This document shows positions 3,873 to 54,397 of a stretch of 64,000 nucleotides of DNA, piece after piece (position 1 is the stretch's first letter; each line of letters starts with the position of its first letter). This DNA is from Escherichia phage ECO07P1. Under the pieces are notes generated by a model that was not told where the DNA came from, searched no databases, and worked only from the letters and a program-made list of their open reading frames with translations. Both the position numbers and the translations under genes were made by a program. The DNA lies in the sequence record OP172784, one strand, 5' to 3'.

Positions 3873-4145
3873 ATGAATAAAAACATTGATACAGTTCGTG
3901 AAATTATTACTGTTGCGTCTATTTTGATTAAATTTTCCAGAGAAGATATTGTTGAGAATCGTGCTAATTTTATTGCATTTCTGAATGAGATTGGAGTAAC
4001 GCATGAAGGTAGAAAGTTAAATCAGAATTCATTCCGTAAAATTGTTTCTGAATTAACCCAAGAAGATAAGAAAACCCTCATCGACGAATTCAACGAGGGT
4101 TTTGAGAGTGTATATCGATATCTAGAGATGTATACGAACAAATAA
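3873..4145 (+). CDS. asiA: AsiA anti-sigma-70 factor
   Basis: 90-aa ORF beginning MNKNIDTVREII, recognised as T4 AsiA. Confidence 0.9.
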   Translation: MNKNIDTVREIITVASILIKFSREDIVENRANFIAFLNEIGVTHEGRKLNQNSFRKIVSELTQEDKKTLIDEFNEGFESVYRYLEMYTNK

Positions 4146-17581: not shown

Positions 17582-17606
17582 GGGGACCCTAGAGGTCCCC
17601 TTTTTA
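17582..17606 (+). terminator. intrinsic terminator after gene 32
   Basis: ggggacc-ctaga-ggtcccc followed by ttttt. Confidence 0.8.
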
Positions 17607-17630
17607 TTTCAAAAATTTTTTCACAAAACT

Positions 17631-17660
17631 GTTTACAAGCATAAAGCTTTGTGGTACTAT
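17631..17660 (+). promoter_or_regulatory. early promoter (near-duplicate of the motA promoter cassette)
   Basis: GTTTAC 17631-17636, 18-nt spacer, gtggTACTAT; same UP element as at 1321-1346. Confidence 0.65.
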
Positions 17661-17703
17661 ACAACTATCGGCAATACTGCTGATAATTAAAGAGGAAAAT
17701 AAC

Positions 17704-17975: not shown

Positions 17976-18338
17976 ATGTATATCGGTAAAAAGTATGAAC
18001 TTGTTCCAAGACTTATTGATACATTTATTAATTATCGTCCACGTTCTAATTCAGCAATAGTTAAAATTATTCAAGAAAATGGCGGATGGTTTGAAGTTAA
18101 AGAAGCTTTCTTTGCTGATGGATTTAGAGTAATAAAACACATTGAATGCGCAAATGGAAAGCATTTTTACTTCAACGTCTGTGAAGACGAATTTCATTGT
18201 TTTCGCGAGTATAAAGAACCGACTTTTGAAGATGAAGTCGAAGACAAGGTTTCTGGCGTAACAAAAATTCACTGCATTGTAGACGAAAACAATGTAGATG
18301 AAATCATTGAACTTTTGCGAAAAACTTTCAAAAAGTAG
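17976..18338 (+). CDS. hypothetical early protein
   Basis: Track ORF; ATG with SD gagga. Confidence 0.5.
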   Translation: MYIGKKYELVPRLIDTFINYRPRSNSAIVKIIQENGGWFEVKEAFFADGFRVIKHIECANGKHFYFNVCEDEFHCFREYKEPTFEDEVEDKVSGVTKIHCIVDENNVDEIIELLRKTFKK

Positions 18339-18372
18339 TTTACATCAGGGTAGTAGTGTGATACTATTACCC
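18338..18372 (+). promoter_or_regulatory. early promoter with -10 region inside a 9-bp inverted repeat
   Basis: GTTTAC 18338-18343; arms gggtagtag (18348-18356) / ctattaccc (18364-18372). Confidence 0.55.
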
Positions 18373-18392
18373 TAACAACTGAGGAGAATAAA

Positions 18393-18635
18393 ATGAGATT
18401 ACAACGCCAGAGCATCAAAGATTCAGAAGTTAGAGGTAAATGGTATTTTAATATCATCGGTAAAGATTCTGAACTTGTTGAAAAAGCTGAACATCTTTTA
18501 CGTGATATGGGATGGGAAGATGAATGCGATGGATGCCCTCTTTATGAGGATGGAGAAAGCGCAGGGTTTTGGATTTACCATTCTGATGTTGAACAGTTTA
18601 AAGCTGATTGGAAAATTGTGAAAAAGTCTGTTTGA
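18393..18635 (+). CDS. hypothetical early protein
   Basis: Track ORF; SD gaggag; promoter upstream. Confidence 0.5.
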   Translation: MRLQRQSIKDSEVRGKWYFNIIGKDSELVEKAEHLLRDMGWEDECDGCPLYEDGESAGFWIYHSDVEQFKADWKIVKKSV

Positions 18636-20388: not shown

Positions 20389-21124
20389 GAAAAGTGGAAT
20401 TTATCAGATTAAAAATACTTTAAACAATAAAGTATATGTAGGAAGTGCTAAAGATTTTGAAAAGAGATGGAAGAGGCATTTTAAAGACTTAGAAAAAGGA
20501 TGTCATTCTTCTATAAAACTTCAGAGGTCTTTTAACAAACATGGTAATGTGTTTGAATGTTCTATTTTGGAAGAAATTCCATATGAGAAAGATTTGATTA
20601 TTGAACGAGAAAATTTTTGGATTAAAGAGCTTAATTCTAAAATTAATGGATACAATATTGCTGATGCAACGTTTGGTGATACATGTTCTACGCATCCATT
20701 AAAAGAAGAAATTATTAAGAAACGTTCTGAAACTGTTAAAGCTAAGATGCTTAAACTTGGACCTGATGGTCGGAAAGCTCTTTACAGTAAACCCGGAAGT
20801 AAAAACGGGCGTTGGAATCCAGAAACCCATAAGTTTTGTAAGTGCGGTGTTCGCATACAAACTTCTGCTTATACTTGTAGTAAATGCAGAAATCGTTCAG
20901 GTGAAAATAATTCATTCTTTAATCATAAGCATTCGGACAAAACTAAATCTAAAATATCAGAAAAGATGAAAGGCAAAAAGCCTAGTAATATTAAAAAGAT
21001 TTCATGTGATGGGGCTATTTTTGAATGTGCAGTAGATGCAGCTAGACATTTTAAAATTTCGTCTGGATTAGTTACTTATCGTGTAAAATCTGATAAATGG
21101 AATTGGTTCTACATAAATGCCTAA
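20387..21124 (+). CDS. I-TevI: I-TevI GIY-YIG homing endonuclease
   Basis: 245-aa ORF inside td intron; N-terminal GIY..YVG motif, C-terminal zinc finger and DNA-binding region. Confidence 0.9.
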   Translation: MKSGIYQIKNTLNNKVYVGSAKDFEKRWKRHFKDLEKGCHSSIKLQRSFNKHGNVFECSILEEIPYEKDLIIERENFWIKELNSKINGYNIADATFGDTCSTHPLKEEIIKKRSETVKAKMLKLGPDGRKALYSKPGSKNGRWNPETHKFCKCGVRIQTSAYTCSKCRNRSGENNSFFNHKHSDKTKSKISEKMKGKKPSNIKKISCDGAIFECAVDAARHFKISSGLVTYRVKSDKWNWFYINA

Positions 21125-26726: not shown

Positions 26727-26730
26727 GGAG

Positions 26731-26753
26731 TGGGCCGCAAGGCCCATTTTATT
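26731..26753 (+). terminator. hairpin plus T-run between nrdB stop and denA start
   Basis: tgggcc-gcaa-ggccca then ttttatt. Confidence 0.55.
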
Positions 26754-28341
<1,588 letters not shown>

Positions 28342-28344
28342 GCT

Positions 28345-28398
28345 GTTTACAAGTCCCTCGTGTTGTGTTATAGTAGACTTACTGACATAACATGAGGA
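28345..28398 (+). promoter_or_regulatory. early promoter inside a long inverted repeat upstream of alc (cassette copy 1)
   Basis: GTTTAC 28345-28350, -10 tatagt 28369-28374; arms 28356-28370 / 28383-28397 with SD gagga in the 3' arm. Confidence 0.6.
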
Positions 28399-28402
28399 CT
28401 TT

Positions 28403-28909
28403 ATGATGGATTTACAGCTTATTACTACTGAGATGGTCGTTGAAGCATACGGTGATACTACAGATGGGATTTCTGTATTTAAAGGAAATCGTCGAGTTGG
28501 ATATATCACCGATCTTAAGAAAGATTTAGCTAAGCAAGTCAAGCGGAAAACGACCATTAAAGAATATCGAAATCGTCGTCTTGAGCAAGCCCGTGATATG
28601 CTTCCCGATGCGGTTGAGGAGATGAAAGTCTTTTTAGAAAATCAGCTTGCGAAATATGATTGTGATGTGTTCATTAATCAGACTCAACCTAATGTTCATA
28701 TTAATAACTGTAAATGCTATATCATCGTTAATCCTTTGACGGGAAAACATCGTCTTGGAATTAGTAATCCAAATCGTAGCGCATCGGATATGGCAGAAGA
28801 TGTTGAGGCATGCTTTAAAATTTCTAAATCTCCTGCTGAACATCATATTTTAATTAACGGTCTTTCTCAAGACGATATTATAGAGGTTATTAAAACTTTA
28901 TGCAATTAA
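28403..28909 (+). CDS. alc: Alc (host transcription shutoff) candidate
   Basis: 168-aa ORF directly after rnlA as in T4. Confidence 0.7.
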   Translation: MMDLQLITTEMVVEAYGDTTDGISVFKGNRRVGYITDLKKDLAKQVKRKTTIKEYRNRRLEQARDMLPDAVEEMKVFLENQLAKYDCDVFINQTQPNVHINNCKCYIIVNPLTGKHRLGISNPNRSASDMAEDVEACFKISKSPAEHHILINGLSQDDIIEVIKTLCN

Positions 28910-31322: not shown

Positions 31323-31361
31323 GTTTACTTTACGGTAGAGTTGTGATATTATAGCTCTACC
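31323..31361 (+). promoter_or_regulatory. early promoter with -10 inside a 7-bp inverted repeat
   Basis: GTTTAC 31323-31328; arms ggtagag (31334-31340) / ctctacc (31355-31361); -10 TGaTATTAT in loop. Confidence 0.55.
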
Positions 31362-31382
31362 AAAATAAATGAGGAAATTGAA

Positions 31383-31619
31383 ATGCTAAGTGAAAAACCA
31401 ATTACTGTTAAAGAATTTCAAGAAAAAGTTAAACTATTTGCTCAGGAATTGGTAAATAAGGTTTCTGAACGATTTCCTGAAACATCGGTTCGTGTTATTA
31501 CCGAAACTCCTCGTTCAGTATTAGTAATTGTGAATCCAGGTGATGGTGACCAAATAACACATCTCAAATTGGATTTTGATGGATTAGTTGAAGCACAAAG
31601 GGTGTATGGCGTACTATGA
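31383..31619 (+). CDS. hypothetical protein
   Basis: Track ORF; SD gagga; promoter upstream. Confidence 0.5.
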   Translation: MLSEKPITVKEFQEKVKLFAQELVNKVSERFPETSVRVITETPRSVLVIVNPGDGDQITHLKLDFDGLVEAQRVYGVL

Positions 31620-34235: not shown

Positions 34236-34240
34236 GTTGA

Positions 34241-34266
34241 GGACTCCTTCGGGAGTCCTTTTTTAT
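34241..34266 (+). terminator. intrinsic terminator (UUCG hairpin plus T-run)
   Basis: ggactcc-ttcg-ggagtcc followed by tttttt. Confidence 0.8.
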
Positions 34267-34287: not shown

Positions 34288-34318
34288 TGTTTACAGTATA
34301 GTTCCTTTGTGATAGTAT
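34288..34318 (+). promoter_or_regulatory. early promoter for ORF 34346
   Basis: GTTTAC 34288-34293, TG-extended -10 near 34311-34318; upstream A/T-rich region like the motA cassette. Confidence 0.55.
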
Positions 34319-34345
34319 TATCTTACACAAACAAAGGAGAATAAA

Positions 34346-34678
34346 ATGAAAACGATTAATCTGAACGCTACAGTTAAAACTAAATGCTTCAATGGTAAAT
34401 ATGATGAAACTATGTGGTTCTTAATGGCAGTTGAAGGTGATATTATTGAAGTAGAAACAACAGAAGGTATGGGAACAGATTTCACCTTTACAATTCAAGT
34501 TCATAATTTCTTTACTGGTTGGATTTATGAATTGAATACAGTAATCGTTGGAAAAATTGAACAAAATGAATTGGGTGAATGGTATTATGTTACAGCTCGT
34601 CAACGTGCCGAACGCTTAATTGAGAAGATGAAAAAAGTTGGTAAACTTGACATGCAGCACTGGAAAGTAGTAAAATAA
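34346..34678 (+). CDS. hypothetical early protein
   Basis: Track ORF; SD aaggaga; early promoter upstream. Confidence 0.5.
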   Translation: MKTINLNATVKTKCFNGKYDETMWFLMAVEGDIIEVETTEGMGTDFTFTIQVHNFFTGWIYELNTVIVGKIEQNELGEWYYVTARQRAERLIEKMKKVGKLDMQHWKVVK

Positions 34679-34680
34679 TT

Positions 34681-34720
34681 GTTTACTTTGGTACAGGATA
34701 TGATATTATATACCTGTACC
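34681..34720 (+). promoter_or_regulatory. early promoter with -10 inside an 8-bp perfect inverted repeat
   Basis: GTTTAC 34681-34686, 17-nt spacer, TGaTATTAT; arms ggtacagg (34690-34697) / cctgtacc (34713-34720). Confidence 0.6.
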
Positions 34721-34746
34721 GCAATTAAACATCTCGGAGAATAAAA

Positions 34747-35112
34747 ATGAATTACATCAACTTTGAACGTAAATATGTTTCTAACGGTATTGCAGGTTCT
34801 ATTGATACTATCTGCCTTTGGAAACATCAAAATGGATCAGTATGCGAAATTGAACAGTATATGACTCCTAACTACGTTTATATGCGATTTGAAAATGGCA
34901 TTACGGTTTCAATCACGAAAGAAGGTTCTTCTTTTAAAATCGCTTTGGATGATGATTTTCGTCAACGTGATTTAGGGACTCATCCTTGCTGGAATGGCGT
35001 TAATCGTAAGCTTCTGGTTAAAACTTGGATTCGTCATATTCTGAGTAATAGAGCTAAACCTGAGCATCTTGAAGCAATCTTTGATGTAGTTCTTAACGAA
35101 TTTGATATTTAA
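34747..35112 (+). CDS. hypothetical early protein
   Basis: Track ORF; SD ggaga; promoter-palindrome upstream. Confidence 0.5.
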   Translation: MNYINFERKYVSNGIAGSIDTICLWKHQNGSVCEIEQYMTPNYVYMRFENGITVSITKEGSSFKIALDDDFRQRDLGTHPCWNGVNRKLLVKTWIRHILSNRAKPEHLEAIFDVVLNEFDI

Positions 35113-38854: not shown

Positions 38855-39039
38855 AAGCTTACTTAGAAACAATTGTCATTGCTCAAAAAGAAGGTGGAGA
38901 TGTTTCTACTTCTGTATCACAAGTCATTCTCGAATTTGTAGATGCATATGCTTATAATAAATTTACAGAAACATTTGATGCCTATGAAAAAGGACCAAAG
39001 TTTGAAATATATCGTACTCTCTTACCACTAGATTACTAA
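38851..39039 (+). CDS. hypothetical protein
   Basis: Track ORF; ATGA overlap with gene 30; hairpin downstream. Confidence 0.45.
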   Translation: MKAYLETIVIAQKEGGDVSTSVSQVILEFVDAYAYNKFTETFDAYEKGPKFEIYRTLLPLDY

Positions 39040-39054
39040 AGGCCTTCGGGCCTT
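39039..39054 (+). terminator. UUCG hairpin after ORF 38851..39039, immediately before the alt late promoter
   Basis: aaggcc-ttcg-ggcctt followed by taatttt. Confidence 0.55.
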
Positions 39055-39060
39055 TAATTT

Positions 39061-39068
39061 TATAAATA
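39061..39068 (+). promoter_or_regulatory. late promoter for alt copy 1
   Basis: tataaata 24 nt upstream of alt ATG; SD gagagg follows. Confidence 0.7.
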
Positions 39069-39091: not shown

Positions 39092-41185
39092 ATGGAACTT
39101 ATTACAGAATTATTTGACGAAGATACTACTCTTCCGATTACAAACTTAAATCCAAAGAAGAAAATACCGCAAATTTTTTCAGTTCATGTTGATGACGCAA
39201 TTGAACAACCAGGCTTTCGTTTATGTACCTATACATCTGGAGGTGATACTAATCGCGATTTAAAAATGGGCGATAAAATGATGCATATTGTTCCTTTTAC
39301 ATTAACTGCTAAAGGTTCAATTGCTAAATTAAAAGGTCTCGGTCCAAGCCCAATTAATTATATCAATTCAGTTTTTACTGTTGCAATGCAGACGATGCGT
39401 CAGTATAAAATTGATGCCTGTATGCTCCGTATTCTTAAGTCTAAAACTGCTGGTCAAGCTCGACAAATTCAAGTTATTGCTGATAGACTTATCCGTAGTC
39501 GTTCGGGTGGCAGATACGTCCTTCTTAAGGAACTCTGGGATTACGATAAAAAGTATGCATATATTCTTATACATCGCAAAAATGTATCACTAGAAGACAT
39601 TCCAGGAGTTCCGGAAATTAGCACCGAGCTCTTTACTAAAGTTGAATCGAAGGTCGGTGATGTTTATATCAATAAAGATACTGGAGCTCAAGTAACTAAA
39701 AATGAGGCAATTGCTGCATCTATTGCGCAAGAAAATGATAAACGTTCTGACCAAGCTGTAATCGTTAAAGTTAAAATTTCCCGTAGAGCAATTGCACAAA
39801 GTCAATCATTAGAATCTTCTAGATTTGAAAGCGAATTATTCCAGAAGTATGAATCTACCGCAGCTAATTTCAATAAACCTGCTACCGCTCCTTTAATTCC
39901 CGAAGCAGAAGAAATGAAACTTGGAATTAATTCATTGGCTTCTAAAACTAAGGCAGCAAAAATTATTGCTGAAGGAACTGCAGATGAACTTCACTATGAT
40001 TATAAATTCTTTTCAAAAAGTGAGGTTAATGAAGTTTCTGAAAAAATTAAAGATGTAATTTTTAACGCGATCAAAAATGAACCGACTACTTCAATAAAAT
40101 GTTTAGAGAAGTATGCAGCAGCTATTAATAAATTCTTTGAAGAATATAAAGATACTTGGCTTGATAAACATAATAAAACCCGTAAAGGACAGCCAGATGA
40201 AGTCTGGGAAGAAATAACTAAAAATTCCTGGAACGCAGCAAAAACTAAATTCCTCAAACGAATGATTTATAGCTTTTCTGGAATTGGTGCAGGTCCAATG
40301 ATTGATATTACTATTGCCCGTGATGGTTCTAAATATACTCCATCACAAAAGCGCGGCATTAGAGAGTATTGTGGTTCAGGATATACTGACATCAATAATC
40401 TTCTTTTAGGACGCTACAATCCAGAACGATATGATGTAATGAGTGAAAAAGAAATTGAATCTGCTATAAATAACTTAGATTCAGCTTTTGAAAATGGTGA
40501 CCGTATACCGGAAGGCATTACAGTTTATCGTGCACAAAGTATGACTGCTCCTATATACGAAGCACTAGTTAAAAATAAAGTGTTCTATTTCAGAAATTTT
40601 GTATCTACTTCTTTAACTCCTATCATTTTTGGGCGTTTTGGAATTACACATGCTGGTATTGGTCTTTTAGAACCAGAAGCTCGTAATGAATTAACAGTTG
40701 ATAAAAATGAAGAAGGAATAACTATTAATCCAAACGAAATAAGAGCGTATAAAGAAAATCCTGAATACGTTAAAGTTCAAATAGGATGGGCAATTGATGG
40801 AGCTCATAAAGTTAATGTTGTATATCCAGGAAGTCTCGGAATAGCAACAGAAGCTGAAGTTATTCTACCACGCGGATTGATGGTCAAAGTTAATAAAATA
40901 ACTGATGCTTCTAATAACGACGGAACAACATCTAATAATACAAAACTCATTCAAGCTGAAGTTATGACTACGGAAGAACTCACCGAATCAGTCATTTATG
41001 ACGGTGACCGTCTAATGGAAACTGGTGAAGTAGTTGCAATGACAGGTGATATTGAAATAGAAGACAGAGTTGACTTTGCATCATTTGTTTCATCAAATGT
41101 TAAACAAAAAGTAGAATCATCTCTTGGAATTATTGCGTCTTGCATAGATATTACAAACATGCCTTACAAGTTCGTTCAAGGATAA
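39092..41185 (+). CDS. alt: Alt ADP-ribosyltransferase (packaged head protein), copy 1
   Basis: ~697 aa; N-terminal MELITE (L/I-x-E protease-site-like); R...STS...E signature (VYRAQ, FVSTSL, EAEVILPRG); late promoter directly upstream. Confidence 0.8.
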   Translation: MELITELFDEDTTLPITNLNPKKKIPQIFSVHVDDAIEQPGFRLCTYTSGGDTNRDLKMGDKMMHIVPFTLTAKGSIAKLKGLGPSPINYINSVFTVAMQTMRQYKIDACMLRILKSKTAGQARQIQVIADRLIRSRSGGRYVLLKELWDYDKKYAYILIHRKNVSLEDIPGVPEISTELFTKVESKVGDVYINKDTGAQVTKNEAIAASIAQENDKRSDQAVIVKVKISRRAIAQSQSLESSRFESELFQKYESTAANFNKPATAPLIPEAEEMKLGINSLASKTKAAKIIAEGTADELHYDYKFFSKSEVNEVSEKIKDVIFNAIKNEPTTSIKCLEKYAAAINKFFEEYKDTWLDKHNKTRKGQPDEVWEEITKNSWNAAKTKFLKRMIYSFSGIGAGPMIDITIARDGSKYTPSQKRGIREYCGSGYTDINNLLLGRYNPERYDVMSEKEIESAINNLDSAFENGDRIPEGITVYRAQSMTAPIYEALVKNKVFYFRNFVSTSLTPIIFGRFGITHAGIGLLEPEARNELTVDKNEEGITINPNEIRAYKENPEYVKVQIGWAIDGAHKVNVVYPGSLGIATEAEVILPRGLMVKVNKITDASNNDGTTSNNTKLIQAEVMTTEELTESVIYDGDRLMETGEVVAMTGDIEIEDRVDFASFVSSNVKQKVESSLGIIASCIDITNMPYKFVQG

Positions 41186-41188
41186 ATC

Positions 41189-43246
41189 ATGGAACTTATT
41201 ACAGAATTATTTGACGGCGCTTCGGCGCCGGTTGTTAACTTAAATCCTAAGCATAAAATACCTCAAATTTTCGCTATTCAAGCCGGTGAAGAAAGTGTGC
41301 TTCCTGGATTTAGATTTTGTACATACACCTCTGGCGGTGATACAAATAAAAACGTTAAGCCAGGCGATAAAATGATGCATATCGTAATGATAGGTGTTAA
41401 TGAGAAATTATCATTAGTTAAACTTAAAAACTTGGGTGGAAATCCAATTGGTGTTATTAATGCGGTTTTTGATACTGCTCTTCAAACAATGAAACAGTAT
41501 AAAATTGACGCATGCCTATTCCGCGTACTAAAAAGTAAAACAAATGGCGCAGCTCGTCAAATGCAAGTTATTGCTGACCGTTTAGTACGTACTAAAGGAG
41601 CAGGTCGATATGTTCTTTTAAAGGAAATCTGGGATTATGATAAAAAGTATGCATATATTATGGTTTACCGTAAAAATGCCAATTTAGAAGACATTCCAGG
41701 TGTACCTCCTATTTCAACTGAGTTATTCACAAAAGTTGAATCAAAGGTTGGTGATGTTTATGTAGATGTTAAAACAGGTAATGCTGTTCCTAAAGCTGTT
41801 GCTGTTGCTGCTTCTATTGCTTTAGAAAATGATAAGCGCACGGATCAAGCTGTTATTCAGAAAACTAAAATTAGTCGTCGATTAGCAGCGCAAGCTCAAT
41901 ATTCTACTGTAGATGCTTCGCTTCAGGGTGATAGCTTCGCTGCCAAGAAATATCAAGAGTTTGAATCTAAAGTTCCGGTATATAAAGCAGAAGGACCAAT
42001 GAACTCTGGCGTTATTCAGATTGGTTCAAACTTCAGCAAAGGAGCTATCGGTGGTATGAGAAGTGCTTCTCGTTTTAAATCTAGCGATTATGAACTAGAA
42101 AACTTCCGAAATCATATTGCATTGGCTCATGCGCGTTTACGTGATCCATCTATCAAGTTACAGAGCGATATAACATATCAAGGTTCTCAGGAATATTTAA
42201 AGAATAAAGAATTTTTTGATTATAAAACTGATAAAATTTTAAGCGATCTTGCTGACATTAATATTTCTAATAGCTTTGATGTTATTAAGAAAATCGTCAA
42301 TGATTTAGTTAAAGGTTCTAAAGCCACGCCAGACGAAAAGATAGCTATTGTTCAATTTGTCATGAATGGCATTTATAAATTGATTAATGAGTCTGCTTCT
42401 CAAGCGTATGAATATGCAAGTACCGAAGTACCCCCAAAAGGATTAACTCAGGCTGAGTCTGATGTAATTGAAGATTATTGTGCAGATTCATATGTTGAAA
42501 TGAACTCGTTCCTCTTGGGTAAACCAGATTCTACCCGTGAAGAATACATGGAACGAGCTATTAAACACATCGAGACGCTGGATTCTGCATTCGCCAAAGG
42601 ATCAGTTCTTCCTCCAGGAACTACGCTTTATCGTGGACAAGAAGTTACTTTTAAAACTTTACGCCATAATATTGAAAATAAAATGTTCTATTTCAAGAAC
42701 TTCGTATCAACATCGCTTAAACCAAATATCTTCGGTGAGTATGGTAAAAACTATATGGCCCTAGATGATTCTGGTGCAGTATTTTCTGGTGAAGGAGAAG
42801 GTTCAGTTGATGCTGAAGATTTAATGCATATGGGCAGTCACTCTGCTTACGCGAATGAAGATGCTGAAACTAGCGTGGGTATGGTAATTAAAGGGGCTGA
42901 GCGAATCAAAGTTATCGTTCCAGGTCATTTATCAGGATTTCCATCAGAAGCTGAAGTTATTCTACCGCGCGGAATTTTACTGAAGATTAATAAAGTAAGT
43001 ACGTACTTTATGAAAGAAACTGCTTATAACAAGTATCTAATAGAAGGTACAATCGTTCCTCCTTCTGAACAATTAGAGGAATCGGTATATGATGGCGACC
43101 ATCTAATGGAAACTGGCGAAGTTCGTCCAATGGCTGGATTTAATCAATTCCTTGTAGAAGAATCAAAAGAAGAGGAAAACGAAGTTTCTCAAATCTTAGC
43201 TTCTTTGGTTAACATTAACGGAATGTCTAAAAAGTTCAAAATGTAG
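41189..43246 (+). CDS. Alt-like ADP-ribosyltransferase paralog, copy 2
   Basis: 685 aa; same N-terminal MELITELFD, same signature (LYRGQ, FVSTSL, EAEVILPRG), conserved C-terminal ESVYDGDHLMETGEV; central ~200 aa divergent. Confidence 0.75.
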   Translation: MELITELFDGASAPVVNLNPKHKIPQIFAIQAGEESVLPGFRFCTYTSGGDTNKNVKPGDKMMHIVMIGVNEKLSLVKLKNLGGNPIGVINAVFDTALQTMKQYKIDACLFRVLKSKTNGAARQMQVIADRLVRTKGAGRYVLLKEIWDYDKKYAYIMVYRKNANLEDIPGVPPISTELFTKVESKVGDVYVDVKTGNAVPKAVAVAASIALENDKRTDQAVIQKTKISRRLAAQAQYSTVDASLQGDSFAAKKYQEFESKVPVYKAEGPMNSGVIQIGSNFSKGAIGGMRSASRFKSSDYELENFRNHIALAHARLRDPSIKLQSDITYQGSQEYLKNKEFFDYKTDKILSDLADINISNSFDVIKKIVNDLVKGSKATPDEKIAIVQFVMNGIYKLINESASQAYEYASTEVPPKGLTQAESDVIEDYCADSYVEMNSFLLGKPDSTREEYMERAIKHIETLDSAFAKGSVLPPGTTLYRGQEVTFKTLRHNIENKMFYFKNFVSTSLKPNIFGEYGKNYMALDDSGAVFSGEGEGSVDAEDLMHMGSHSAYANEDAETSVGMVIKGAERIKVIVPGHLSGFPSEAEVILPRGILLKINKVSTYFMKETAYNKYLIEGTIVPPSEQLEESVYDGDHLMETGEVRPMAGFNQFLVEESKEEENEVSQILASLVNINGMSKKFKM

Positions 43247-43300
43247 TTTACAAGTTCCTCATGTTGTGTTATAGTAGTCTTACTGACATAACATGAGGAA
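43246..43300 (+). promoter_or_regulatory. early promoter inside a long inverted repeat (cassette copy 2, near-identical to 28345..28398)
   Basis: GTTTAC 43246-43251, -10 tatagt; perfect 11-bp arms ttcctcatgtt (43255-43265) / aacatgaggaa (43290-43300); SD gagga in 3' arm. Confidence 0.6.
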
Positions 43301-43306
43301 CACAAA

Positions 43307-43597
43307 ATGAAATCTTCTTTGCGCTTTTTAGGTCAAGAACTTGTAGTTGAAGGCGTTATTCCTGCTGATAACGCTTTTAATGAAGCAGTTTACGATGAAT
43401 TTATCAAAATTTTTGGAACAGATAAAAAGTTCGGAATTTTTCCTTCTGAAAATTTTTCAAAGCCAGAACAGACTGAAAGTATTTTTCAGGGTGTGGTAAC
43501 AGGTAAATTTGAGTCAGAAGCTCCGGTAAAAATTGAAGTTTATATTGAAGACAGTTTAGTTGCTTCAGTTGCTGCTTTCATTTCATTCCGTAAATAA
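43307..43597 (+). CDS. hypothetical 96-aa protein with its own early promoter
   Basis: Track ORF; SD gagga within promoter-palindrome cassette. Confidence 0.5.
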   Translation: MKSSLRFLGQELVVEGVIPADNAFNEAVYDEFIKIFGTDKKFGIFPSENFSKPEQTESIFQGVVTGKFESEAPVKIEVYIEDSLVASVAAFISFRK

Positions 43598-43603
43598 AAA
43601 CAT

Positions 43604-43621
43604 GGGGACCGAAAGGTCCCC
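43604..43621. terminator. bidirectional terminator between convergent ORF 43307..43597 and gene 54
   Basis: ggggacc-gaaa-ggtcccc flanked by A/T runs on both sides. Confidence 0.65.
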
Positions 43622-43625
43622 ATTG

Positions 43626-53716: not shown

Positions 53717-54397
53717 ATGATAGATAAAGATTATATTGCAGAGCTGAAGGCTCTTGATGATAATAAAGAAGCTAAGGCTAAATTAGCTGAATATGCTGAA
53801 CAGTTTGGTATAAAGGTCAAAAAGAATAAATCTTTTGATAATATCGTTGTTGATATTGAAGAAGCCCTCCAGAAGCTCGCTAGCGAACCTATGCCAGAGA
53901 CTGATGGGTTATCTATTAAAGACTTAATCAATGCTGCTGATGCTGCAGAAGGATTAAAATATGACGATGAAGAAGTCAATCCAGAAGCAGCACTTCTGAT
54001 TGATTCTCCGGTTAAATCTGACATTAAAATTGAAGTAGTAGAAAAGGATAAAATTCCTGAAAATACTGATGTTTTGATTGAAGATACTCCTTTTGTTGAA
54101 GAAAAATTCGAGCAGGCCGTAGCTGAGATTATTGAATCTGAAAAGCCGTCTGTATTTACTCTTCCGGAAAACTTTAGTCCGAATCTTCAGCTGATTGGAA
54201 AAAATCCAGGATTCTGTACTGTTCCTTGGTGGATTTATCAATGGATTGCTGAAACTCCGGATTGGAAATCTCACCCAACTAGTTTTGAACACGCGTCAGC
54301 ACACCAAACTTTATTTAGCTTAATTTATTACATTAACCGTGACGGATCAGTTTTAATTCGTGAAACACGCAACTCTTCTTTCGTGACATTAAAATAA
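53717..54397 (+). CDS. inh: Inh-like protein (inhibitor of prohead protease), assigned by position
   Basis: 226-aa ORF directly upstream of hoc as in T4. Confidence 0.55.
   Translation: MIDKDYIAELKALDDNKEAKAKLAEYAEQFGIKVKKNKSFDNIVVDIEEALQKLASEPMPETDGLSIKDLINAADAAEGLKYDDEEVNPEAALLIDSPVKSDIKIEVVEKDKIPENTDVLIEDTPFVEEKFEQAVAEIIESEKPSVFTLPENFSPNLQLIGKNPGFCTVPWWIYQWIAETPDWKSHPTSFEHASAHQTLFSLIYYINRDGSVLIRETRNSSFVTLK

Follow-up and report, generated by a model that had tools for sequence, protein, structure and literature searches.

We analyzed a 64,000-nucleotide stretch of the genome of Escherichia phage ECO07P1 (OP172784), hereafter the window, whose + strand corresponds to the one transcribed early (counter-clockwise) on the T4 map. 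Unless stated otherwise, the features described below lie on this strand. The gene for RNA ligase 1, rnlA (gp63; 27217-28341), was identified from the ORF list, the T4 annotation, and a 100% match to "RNA ligase 1" of phage ECO07P3, and is followed by alc, encoding the inhibitor of host transcription (28406-28909; start as in the T4 annotation, with an alternative ATG at 28403). Between them lies the first copy of a 54-nt cassette (28345-28398), which contains an inverted repeat whose 5′ arm begins 10 nt after the rnlA stop codon (28339-28341). Upstream of rnlA is a site resembling a middle promoter (MotA-box-like; TGCTTC-14 nt-TACTAT, 27165-27190), recognized by motif only. It is preceded by an ORF with a GIY-YIG domain (26730-27164), for which we considered and rejected an inserted homing endonuclease; the ORF is denA (endonuclease II), which is found at this place in T4 as well. 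At the other end of alc, the start of the spanin homologue pseT.3 overlaps the last codons (28900-28909), and if translation of pseT.3 is coupled to that of alc, the gate proposed below would reach pseT.3 too on read-through RNA.

The second copy of the cassette (43246-43299) follows two tandem paralogues of alt (ADP-ribosyltransferase), at 39092-41185 and 41189-43246, which are 71 to 80% identical in long stretches at a spacing of 2,094 nt. A late promoter motif, TATAAATA (39061-39068), is located upstream of the first paralogue, directly after a terminator (39037-39056). The second paralogue is intact, its T4 equivalent being the remnants alt.-1 and alt.-2, and its TAG stop codon overlaps copy 2 by one base, the G with which the cassette opens. 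We also asked if the T4 deletion that gave rise to alt.-1/alt.-2 ends at the cassette, and rejected this, as the deletion lies wholly within the second alt gene. Downstream of copy 2 are the alt.-3 homologue (DUF5498; 43307-43597), a bidirectional terminator (43602-43623), and, on the opposite strand, gene 54. Copy 2 adjoins the alt-paralogue polymorphism and a DUF gene, and copy 1 sits within an rnlA-alc synteny conserved across genera. The 1-kb stretches around both copies match Escherichia phage ECO07P3 (OP172786.1) at 100% and ∼500 other Tequatrovirus genomes at 95 to 99%. A terminator scan found no terminator-like site from rnlA to copy 1 or from the alt genes to copy 2, and no TATAAATA late motif is present in or near either cassette.

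The two copies are identical at 51 of 54 positions, with 3 mismatches, which confirms the repeat described in an earlier note on this DNA; none of 100 dinucleotide-preserving shuffles contained a second copy at ≤3 mismatches. Identity extends exactly from the G of GTTTAC to the Shine-Dalgarno sequence (SD) GAGGA, and the flanking sequences are unrelated. In a promoter scan, both sites read as TTTACA, a 17-nt spacer, and TATAGT, with a TGn extension. The promoter that the note had proposed is thus present at both sites, with a spacer of 17 rather than 18 nt, the earlier count having started at GTTTAC. The early promoter of copy 1 occupies 28346-28374 (−35 TTTACA, 28346-28351; TG, 28366-28367; −10 TATAGT, 28369-28374), and its predicted transcription start, set by T4 early-promoter geometry, is the A at 28381, seven nt after the −10. 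The corresponding parts of copy 2 are the −35 at 43247-43252, the −10 at 43270-43275, and the predicted +1 at 43282. Thirty nucleotides identical to the copy 1 promoter were annotated by another group as "predicted early promoter" in phage fPS-90.

In both copies the 5′ arm of the inverted repeat fills the promoter spacer and the 3′ arm holds the SD. In the minimum-free-energy structure of copy 1, the 5′ arm, an anti-SD sequence (28351-28369), pairs with the 3′ arm (28384-28401), which was placed from the opening energies as well and includes GAGGA at 28394-28398; the predicted +1 falls in the 3′ half of a small apical stem (28372-28375/28380-28383). The arms of copy 2, delimited by the repeat, the promoter scan, and folding, are at 43254-43270 and 43285-43301, with the SD at 43295-43299. 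The SD accordingly lies in the 3′ arm at both sites, as had been claimed. The further claim that the promoter lies inside the inverted repeat stands for the −10 and the predicted start, both of which are in the loop, and fails for the −35 hexamer, which is outside and 5′ of the hairpin.

We compared the folding of read-through and promoter-proximal RNA. The full elements had predicted minimum free energies of −27.3 (copy 1) and −27.9 kcal/mol (copy 2), with z scores of −5.7 and −5.1, and 0 of 200 shuffles folded as stably, whereas RNA from the predicted +1 of either copy was no more structured than shuffles. The cost of opening the start region was taken as the free energy required to hold the RNA single-stranded from −14 to +2 relative to the start codon, with read-through RNA modeled with 150 nt of upstream sequence. 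The predicted opening cost on read-through RNA was 16.9 kcal/mol for alc and 19.0 kcal/mol for alt.-3, versus 3.8 and 2.4 kcal/mol on RNA from the predicted +1, which lies 3′ of the 5′ arm in both copies. Both halves of the earlier proposal, that the SD would be sequestered on read-through RNA and free on RNA from the cassette's own promoter, are thereby supported in the model. By the same calculation, read-through RNA of the established T4 gates gave 15.5 (e), 15.1 (I-TevI), 16.3 (segB), 15.6 (49), and 8.9 kcal/mol (soc); lysozyme synthesis reportedly drops 100-fold because of the e hairpin (PMC3014915). On this modeled measure the cassette gate matches the proven T4 gates in strength, and the likeness to the lysozyme (e) and I-TevI genes that the note had drawn holds up in silico, as does one to segB and 49, the promoter here being of the early type. 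Against Rfam 15, nothing in the window reached the gathering score; the hits below it were chance matches to miRNA hairpins (E values of 0.2 to 0.5).

We propose that the cassette is a compact, self-insulating early expression unit. As DNA it is a strong promoter of the T4 sigma-70 early type, and the promoter spacer is at the same time the reverse complement of the downstream SD region. RNA polymerase would start ∼7 nt after the −10 and produce an RNA with the 3′ arm only and a single-stranded SD, from which alc (or alt.-3) would be translated in the first minutes of infection. Read-through RNA, from middle or delayed-early transcription through rnlA or late transcription through the alt genes, would carry both arms and could form a hairpin of ∼20 bp once the 3′ arm emerges, burying the SD. 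The downstream gene would then be silent on this RNA, and transcription could continue. We infer the start site, the folding in vivo, and the translational effect from the sequence and the models; on this basis alc and alt.-3 are probably translated only from their own early transcripts, and we regard translational insulation as the fairly probable main role of the cassette.

Possible origins of the read-through RNA can be named at both loci. The motif at 27165-27190 is a possible source for copy 1, and the late promoter motif at 39061-39068 is a likely source of late RNA entering copy 2. A ribosome terminating on the upstream gene could melt only the first few pairs of the hairpin, since the upstream stop codons, as located in the sequence, lie 8 to 10 nt 5′ of it. 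In time-resolved omics of T4 (PMC9697503), alt is late (RNA at 7 min, protein at 8 min), alc and alt.-3 both appear as early RNA and early protein, rnlA has early RNA and late protein, and alt.-1 and alt.-2 have middle RNA. The timing of alc, alt.-3, alt, and rnlA is consistent with the gate prediction, short of proof.

We further examined the rnlA-alc junction, which is ∼60 nt long and syntenic across many Straboviridae. In Tequatro-, Gelderland-, Karam-, Jiaoda-, Braga-, Roskilde-, Dhaka-, and Winklervirus, a 5′ arm directly follows the −35 and a 3′ arm lies over the SD. The −35 region before the 5′ arm is GTTTACA in seven of these genera and GTGTACA in Roskildevirus, and the arm pairs (5′/3′) differ among genera: TCTCCGTTTAGTT/AACTAAACGGAGA, TCTCCATTTG/CAAATGGAGA, TCCTCGTCAG/CTGATGAGGA, ACCTCTCATTTT/AAAATGAGAGGT, TCTCCTCAT/ATGAGGAGA, and TCCTCATTTCGT/ACGAAATGAGGA. 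Loop length and register vary, with the arms sliding 1 to 3 nt relative to the fixed promoter in a MAFFT alignment of the alc leaders, and in all eight conforming genera the 3′ arm covers the SD and ends 2 to 6 nt before the start codon. Because this alignment is not structure-aware, we used per-lineage duplex energies and permutation controls. Arms of the same lineage paired with a mean energy of −19.5 kcal/mol, compared to −11.9 kcal/mol (sd 1.5) when arms were permuted among lineages, and among 20,000 lineage permutations only the identity permutation reached the observed value. RNAalifold, run on the unrefined alignment, recovered the helix, in which four pairs had substitutions in both arms, at a weak consensus energy. 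Opening costs at alc in these genera were 9.7 to 17.4 kcal/mol for read-through RNA and 1.0 to 4.7 kcal/mol for own-promoter RNA.

Taken together, these comparisons argue that the SD-sequestering arrangement at alc is selected in many lineages. It is also dispensable, since Mosigvirus AV112 and NHEP11 and Providencia phage PSTCR6 share the rnlA-alc synteny without SD sequestration: the two Mosigvirus junctions have only a small hairpin inside the spacer, and that of PSTCR6 has a hairpin straddling the −10 with the SD free. No comparable arrangement was seen at the alc junctions of Ac42 and phiAS4, and Gaprivervirus ECML-359, another exception, carries a partial duplication of alc upstream.

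The pair of copies has a narrower distribution. A 70-nt query matched 997 places, two in each genome, across 499 phage records; all of these come from T4-type coliphages and their relatives (Tequatrovirus), with T4, T2, and T6 among them. The T4 copies, one preceding alc and the other separating alt.-2 from alt.-3, have a single mismatch in 54 positions; in some Tequatrovirus genomes the two are identical at all 54. Gene conversion between the copies is a possibility; their divergence (0 to 3 of 54) is not below the level usual in the genus. The 3′ arm is invariant in Tequatrovirus, and most variants of the 5′ arm keep pairing (G·U to A-U, C-G to U·G, and C·A to U-A); one copy has a 5′-arm variant with extra mismatches. 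IMG/VR scans with Alc and Alt.-3 returned 6 and 5 loci, respectively, all of Tequatrovirus, which were used for within-genus variants only.

Outside Tequatrovirus, we checked the alt.-3 homologues of Gaprivervirus, Mosigvirus, Marfavirus, Karamvirus, and Kanagawavirus. Each is preceded by an early promoter in the equivalent position, but the hairpin there is short and confined to the spacer (for example, GCAC-AAGGAA-GTGC), and the SD is free. From these comparisons, the SD-sequestering unit at alt.-3 is specific to Tequatrovirus. Since the other genera carry a different early promoter there, the alt.-3 copy is best read as an alc-type unit that replaced this promoter in an ancestor of Tequatrovirus; the shared −35 and SD motifs would supply the homology for such an exchange from alc to alt.-3, for which we saw no recombinant junction. 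The two promoters, at alc and at alt.-3, are similar to one another in Mosigvirus AV112 as well, both being of the small spacer-hairpin type, and these may be either old paralogues or promoters homogenized independently in each genus.

The arrangement recurs among early promoters of other sequence. A scan of the T4 early strand (∼149 kb, in three loci) yielded 36 promoter units of the GTTTAC type that are followed by an SD and a start codon, and a unit was counted as qualifying when its read-through opening cost was ≥10 kcal/mol and its own-promoter cost at least 7 kcal/mol lower. Nine of the 36 units qualified (modB, nrdC.8, regB, denV, e.8, alt.-3, 30.8, alc, and ndd.4), with motB.2 as a partial case. 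Six T4 units had a spacer:SD duplex of −18 kcal/mol or stronger, compared to 0.2 expected from cross-pairing and 0.035 per genome after shuffling of the spacers; none of 20,000 permutations reached six. Three of 10 such units in the window qualified: alc, alt.-3, and a third, weaker unit of unrelated sequence upstream of the gp30.8 homologue (34289-34348). In this last unit a 5′ arm in the spacer (34302-34310) pairs with a 3′ arm over the SD (34331-34339), with an opening cost of 10.8 kcal/mol on read-through RNA versus 0.4 kcal/mol on own-promoter RNA. Gating was unexpected at this site; a strong terminator (34239-34260) directly precedes the unit, and little read-through is therefore expected. 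Judged by these scans, the alc/alt.-3 cassette exemplifies a design that recurs among T4 early promoters.

A second class of early promoters has spacers that pair with sequence over or just 3′ of the −10 and leave the SD free. Its members include units at 18338-18395, 31323-31385, and 34681-34749 in the window, with hairpins of 7 to 12 bp, as well as T4 dmd and mobD.2. Since these hairpins leave the SD free, promoter-associated hairpins must have at least one other role, possibly also at alc and alt.-3, and it is mainly the existence of this class that keeps a non-translational role in play.

Hairpin gating of this kind is already known from T4 late genes, and the cassette joins the same logic to an early promoter. 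Two reviews from 2010 name e, soc, 49, I-TevI/II/III, and segB, together with mobE of Aeh1, as hairpin-gated genes of T4-type phages; according to them, every gene known to be gated in this way is late, and alc and alt.-3 are not listed (PMC2988022, PMC3014915). These gates have a helix that buries the SD or AUG on upstream transcripts and a promoter whose own transcripts lack the 5′ strand and are translated, and the cassette is predicted to have both. They are of comparable strength, at 8.9 to 16.3 kcal/mol for those computed here versus 16.9 and 19.0 kcal/mol for the cassette. The late-gene gates, however, use a gp55 late promoter (TATAAATA), whereas the cassette uses a sigma-70 early promoter upstream of genes that are early in T4, and its 5′ strand is the promoter's own spacer. 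Because the internal promoter is an early one, the cassette gate would confine translation to the earliest transcripts, whereas the late-gene gates postpone it to late times.

A second likeness is to the promoter early stem-loops (PeSLs), described as composites of early promoter, stem-loop, and SD, whose stems often lie between the −35 and −10 or overlap the −10 and were interpreted as terminators or attenuators and as sites of recombination (Arbiol 2010, PMC2839356; Comeau 2014, PMC4122927). Like the cassette, PeSLs are intergenic composites of an early promoter, a stem-loop, an SD, and a start codon that occur as related copies within a genome; they also seem to be exchanged between loci, as may have happened from alc to alt.-3. 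Pairing with the SD does not figure in this literature, and the words "sequester" and "translation" occur 0 times in the main text of PMC2839356. Furthermore, the PeSL stems of PST and T4 are described as just upstream of the promoter, unlike the 5′ arm in the spacer here, and PeSLs lie preferentially in hyperplastic regions, next to ORFans and indels, whereas copy 1 is part of the conserved rnlA-alc synteny. A further precedent is a T4 record from 1986 (X04567.1), in which inverted repeats C/C′ (denV) and D/D′ (regB) are annotated at 1335-1377 and 3943-4001. Their anatomy is that of the cassette: the 5′ repeat occupies the spacer, the two repeats flank the −10, and the 3′ repeat includes the ribosome-binding site. 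Their sequence is unrelated to it, and the record labels them "put. stem-loop structure; pot. transcription terminator." Since that record annotated the same anatomy at regB and denV, the anatomy of the cassette is not new. In the literature accessible to us we did not find SD occlusion at an early promoter put forward as a mechanism, the covariation, or the genome-wide recurrence, and an earlier statement of SD occlusion at early promoters is possible; a paper on DksA does not mention the alc and alt.-3 genes.

We weighed translational insulation against four other explanations. The hairpin could instead serve the upstream rnlA or alt RNA, as a terminator, attenuator, pause site, or 3′-end stabilizer, with the overlap with the SD incidental to the short intergenic space. 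The terminator labels in X04567.1 point this way, as do the several early promoters whose −10-straddling hairpins do not contact the SD and the lowered expression seen when an RB49 PeSL stem-loop was placed between a promoter and lacZ (PMC2839356), although translational occlusion predicts the same drop. The element does resemble Rho-independent terminators in being a stable, G+C-containing stem-loop located where a gene ends. Unlike them, it includes the SD of the next gene in its stem and is called at neither site by the terminator scan, and no U tract follows it here (copy 1 has CUUUAUGAUG after the stem, and copy 2 has ACACAAAAUG) or in the other genera. A structure acting at the upstream 3′ end would not need to cover the SD, as the 3′ arm does in all eight conforming genera, and we consider this explanation, the chief rival, unlikely. 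A further explanation is a role of the duplex in processing or protection, as an RNase III site separating the cistrons or as a shield of the SD from the RegB endoribonuclease. The Tequatrovirus stem of ∼20 bp is long enough for RNase III, and RegB cleaves GGAG in early SDs (PMC3014915), but the stems of 8 to 15 bp in other genera are too short for RNase III, and the Tequatrovirus SD, GAGGA, contains no GGAG, which makes this role very improbable.

Alternatively, the repeat could matter mainly as DNA, as a portable, PeSL-like promoter cassette that provides homology for recombination or gene conversion. The copies would then resemble each other solely through duplication of one from the other, and the RNA hairpin would have no regulatory role. 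Several points favor this: the identity ends exactly at the promoter and the SD with unrelated flanks, the copies differ at one position in T4 and at none in some genomes, the Tequatrovirus alt.-3 copy looks like a replacement of the different promoter of other genera, the T4 pairs nrdC.8/ndd.4 and dmd/mobD.2 look paralogous, and PeSLs are documented recombination sites (PMC2839356, PMC4122927). Such transfer accounts for the two copies but not for the covariation of the arms across genera at alc, and it leaves the ∼30-fold enrichment of anti-SD spacers in T4 unaccounted for. The T4 alt.-1/alt.-2 deletion, moreover, does not end at the cassette. Among the genes in the 15 kb separating the copies are 30 (DNA ligase) and 31, both known to be essential in T4, so that a deletion between the repeats should be lethal, a further point against this explanation. 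We hold it to be quite unlikely as a full account; transfer of the cassette as the origin of copy 2 is compatible with translational insulation or with a role in the upstream transcript. Finally, GTTTACA, TGTG-TAnnnT, CTTAC, and GAGGA are generic to T4 early promoters, and in AT-rich sequence this shared consensus could produce similarity and a hairpin by chance. The shuffle controls (no second copy in 100 shuffles, no fold as stable in 200, and 0.035 versus six strong spacer:SD duplexes) refute a chance origin, to which we give practically no credence.

During the first minutes of an infection, Alc silences host transcription. If translational insulation is the role of the cassette, then Alc, and also Alt.-3, RegB, ModB, DenV, and others, would be limited to a short pulse despite the later transcripts that cross their genes, an early-only translation that would be the mirror image of the late-only logic of lysozyme and I-TevI. 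The promoter spacer, normally unconstrained, would carry a second code at the RNA level, and the PeSL stem-loops and the "potential terminators" of 1986 could be read anew as providing translational rather than transcriptional insulation. If general, this would add a previously unformulated layer to T4 early gene control and would explain in mechanistic terms how modules of genes can be shuffled in the absence of terminators. For phage engineering, it would offer a compact promoter and leader (54 nt from the −35 to the SD) that should ignore upstream read-through.

More tentatively, it is possible, though we lean somewhat against it, that about a quarter of T4-type early promoters are self-insulating units of this kind, each with a spacer that is anti-SD and translation from its own immediate-early transcript only, regardless of the amount of read-through RNA, and that they are swapped between loci by recombination through their shared −35 and SD motifs, the transfer from alc to alt.-3 in Tequatrovirus being one example. 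Two further pairs of T4 cassettes are alike (AF158101, minus strand): nrdC.8/ndd.4, at 53943 and 166807, and dmd/mobD.2, at 20612 and 57990. The differences within each pair appear to keep the arms paired, which suggests families of exchanged cassettes beyond alc/alt.-3. The window also contains a 74-nt direct repeat of 85% identity (1312-1385 and 17596-17669), in which a T run is followed by a GTTTACA...TACTAT early promoter; it forms a second pair of related early-promoter regions, in this case without SD pairing.
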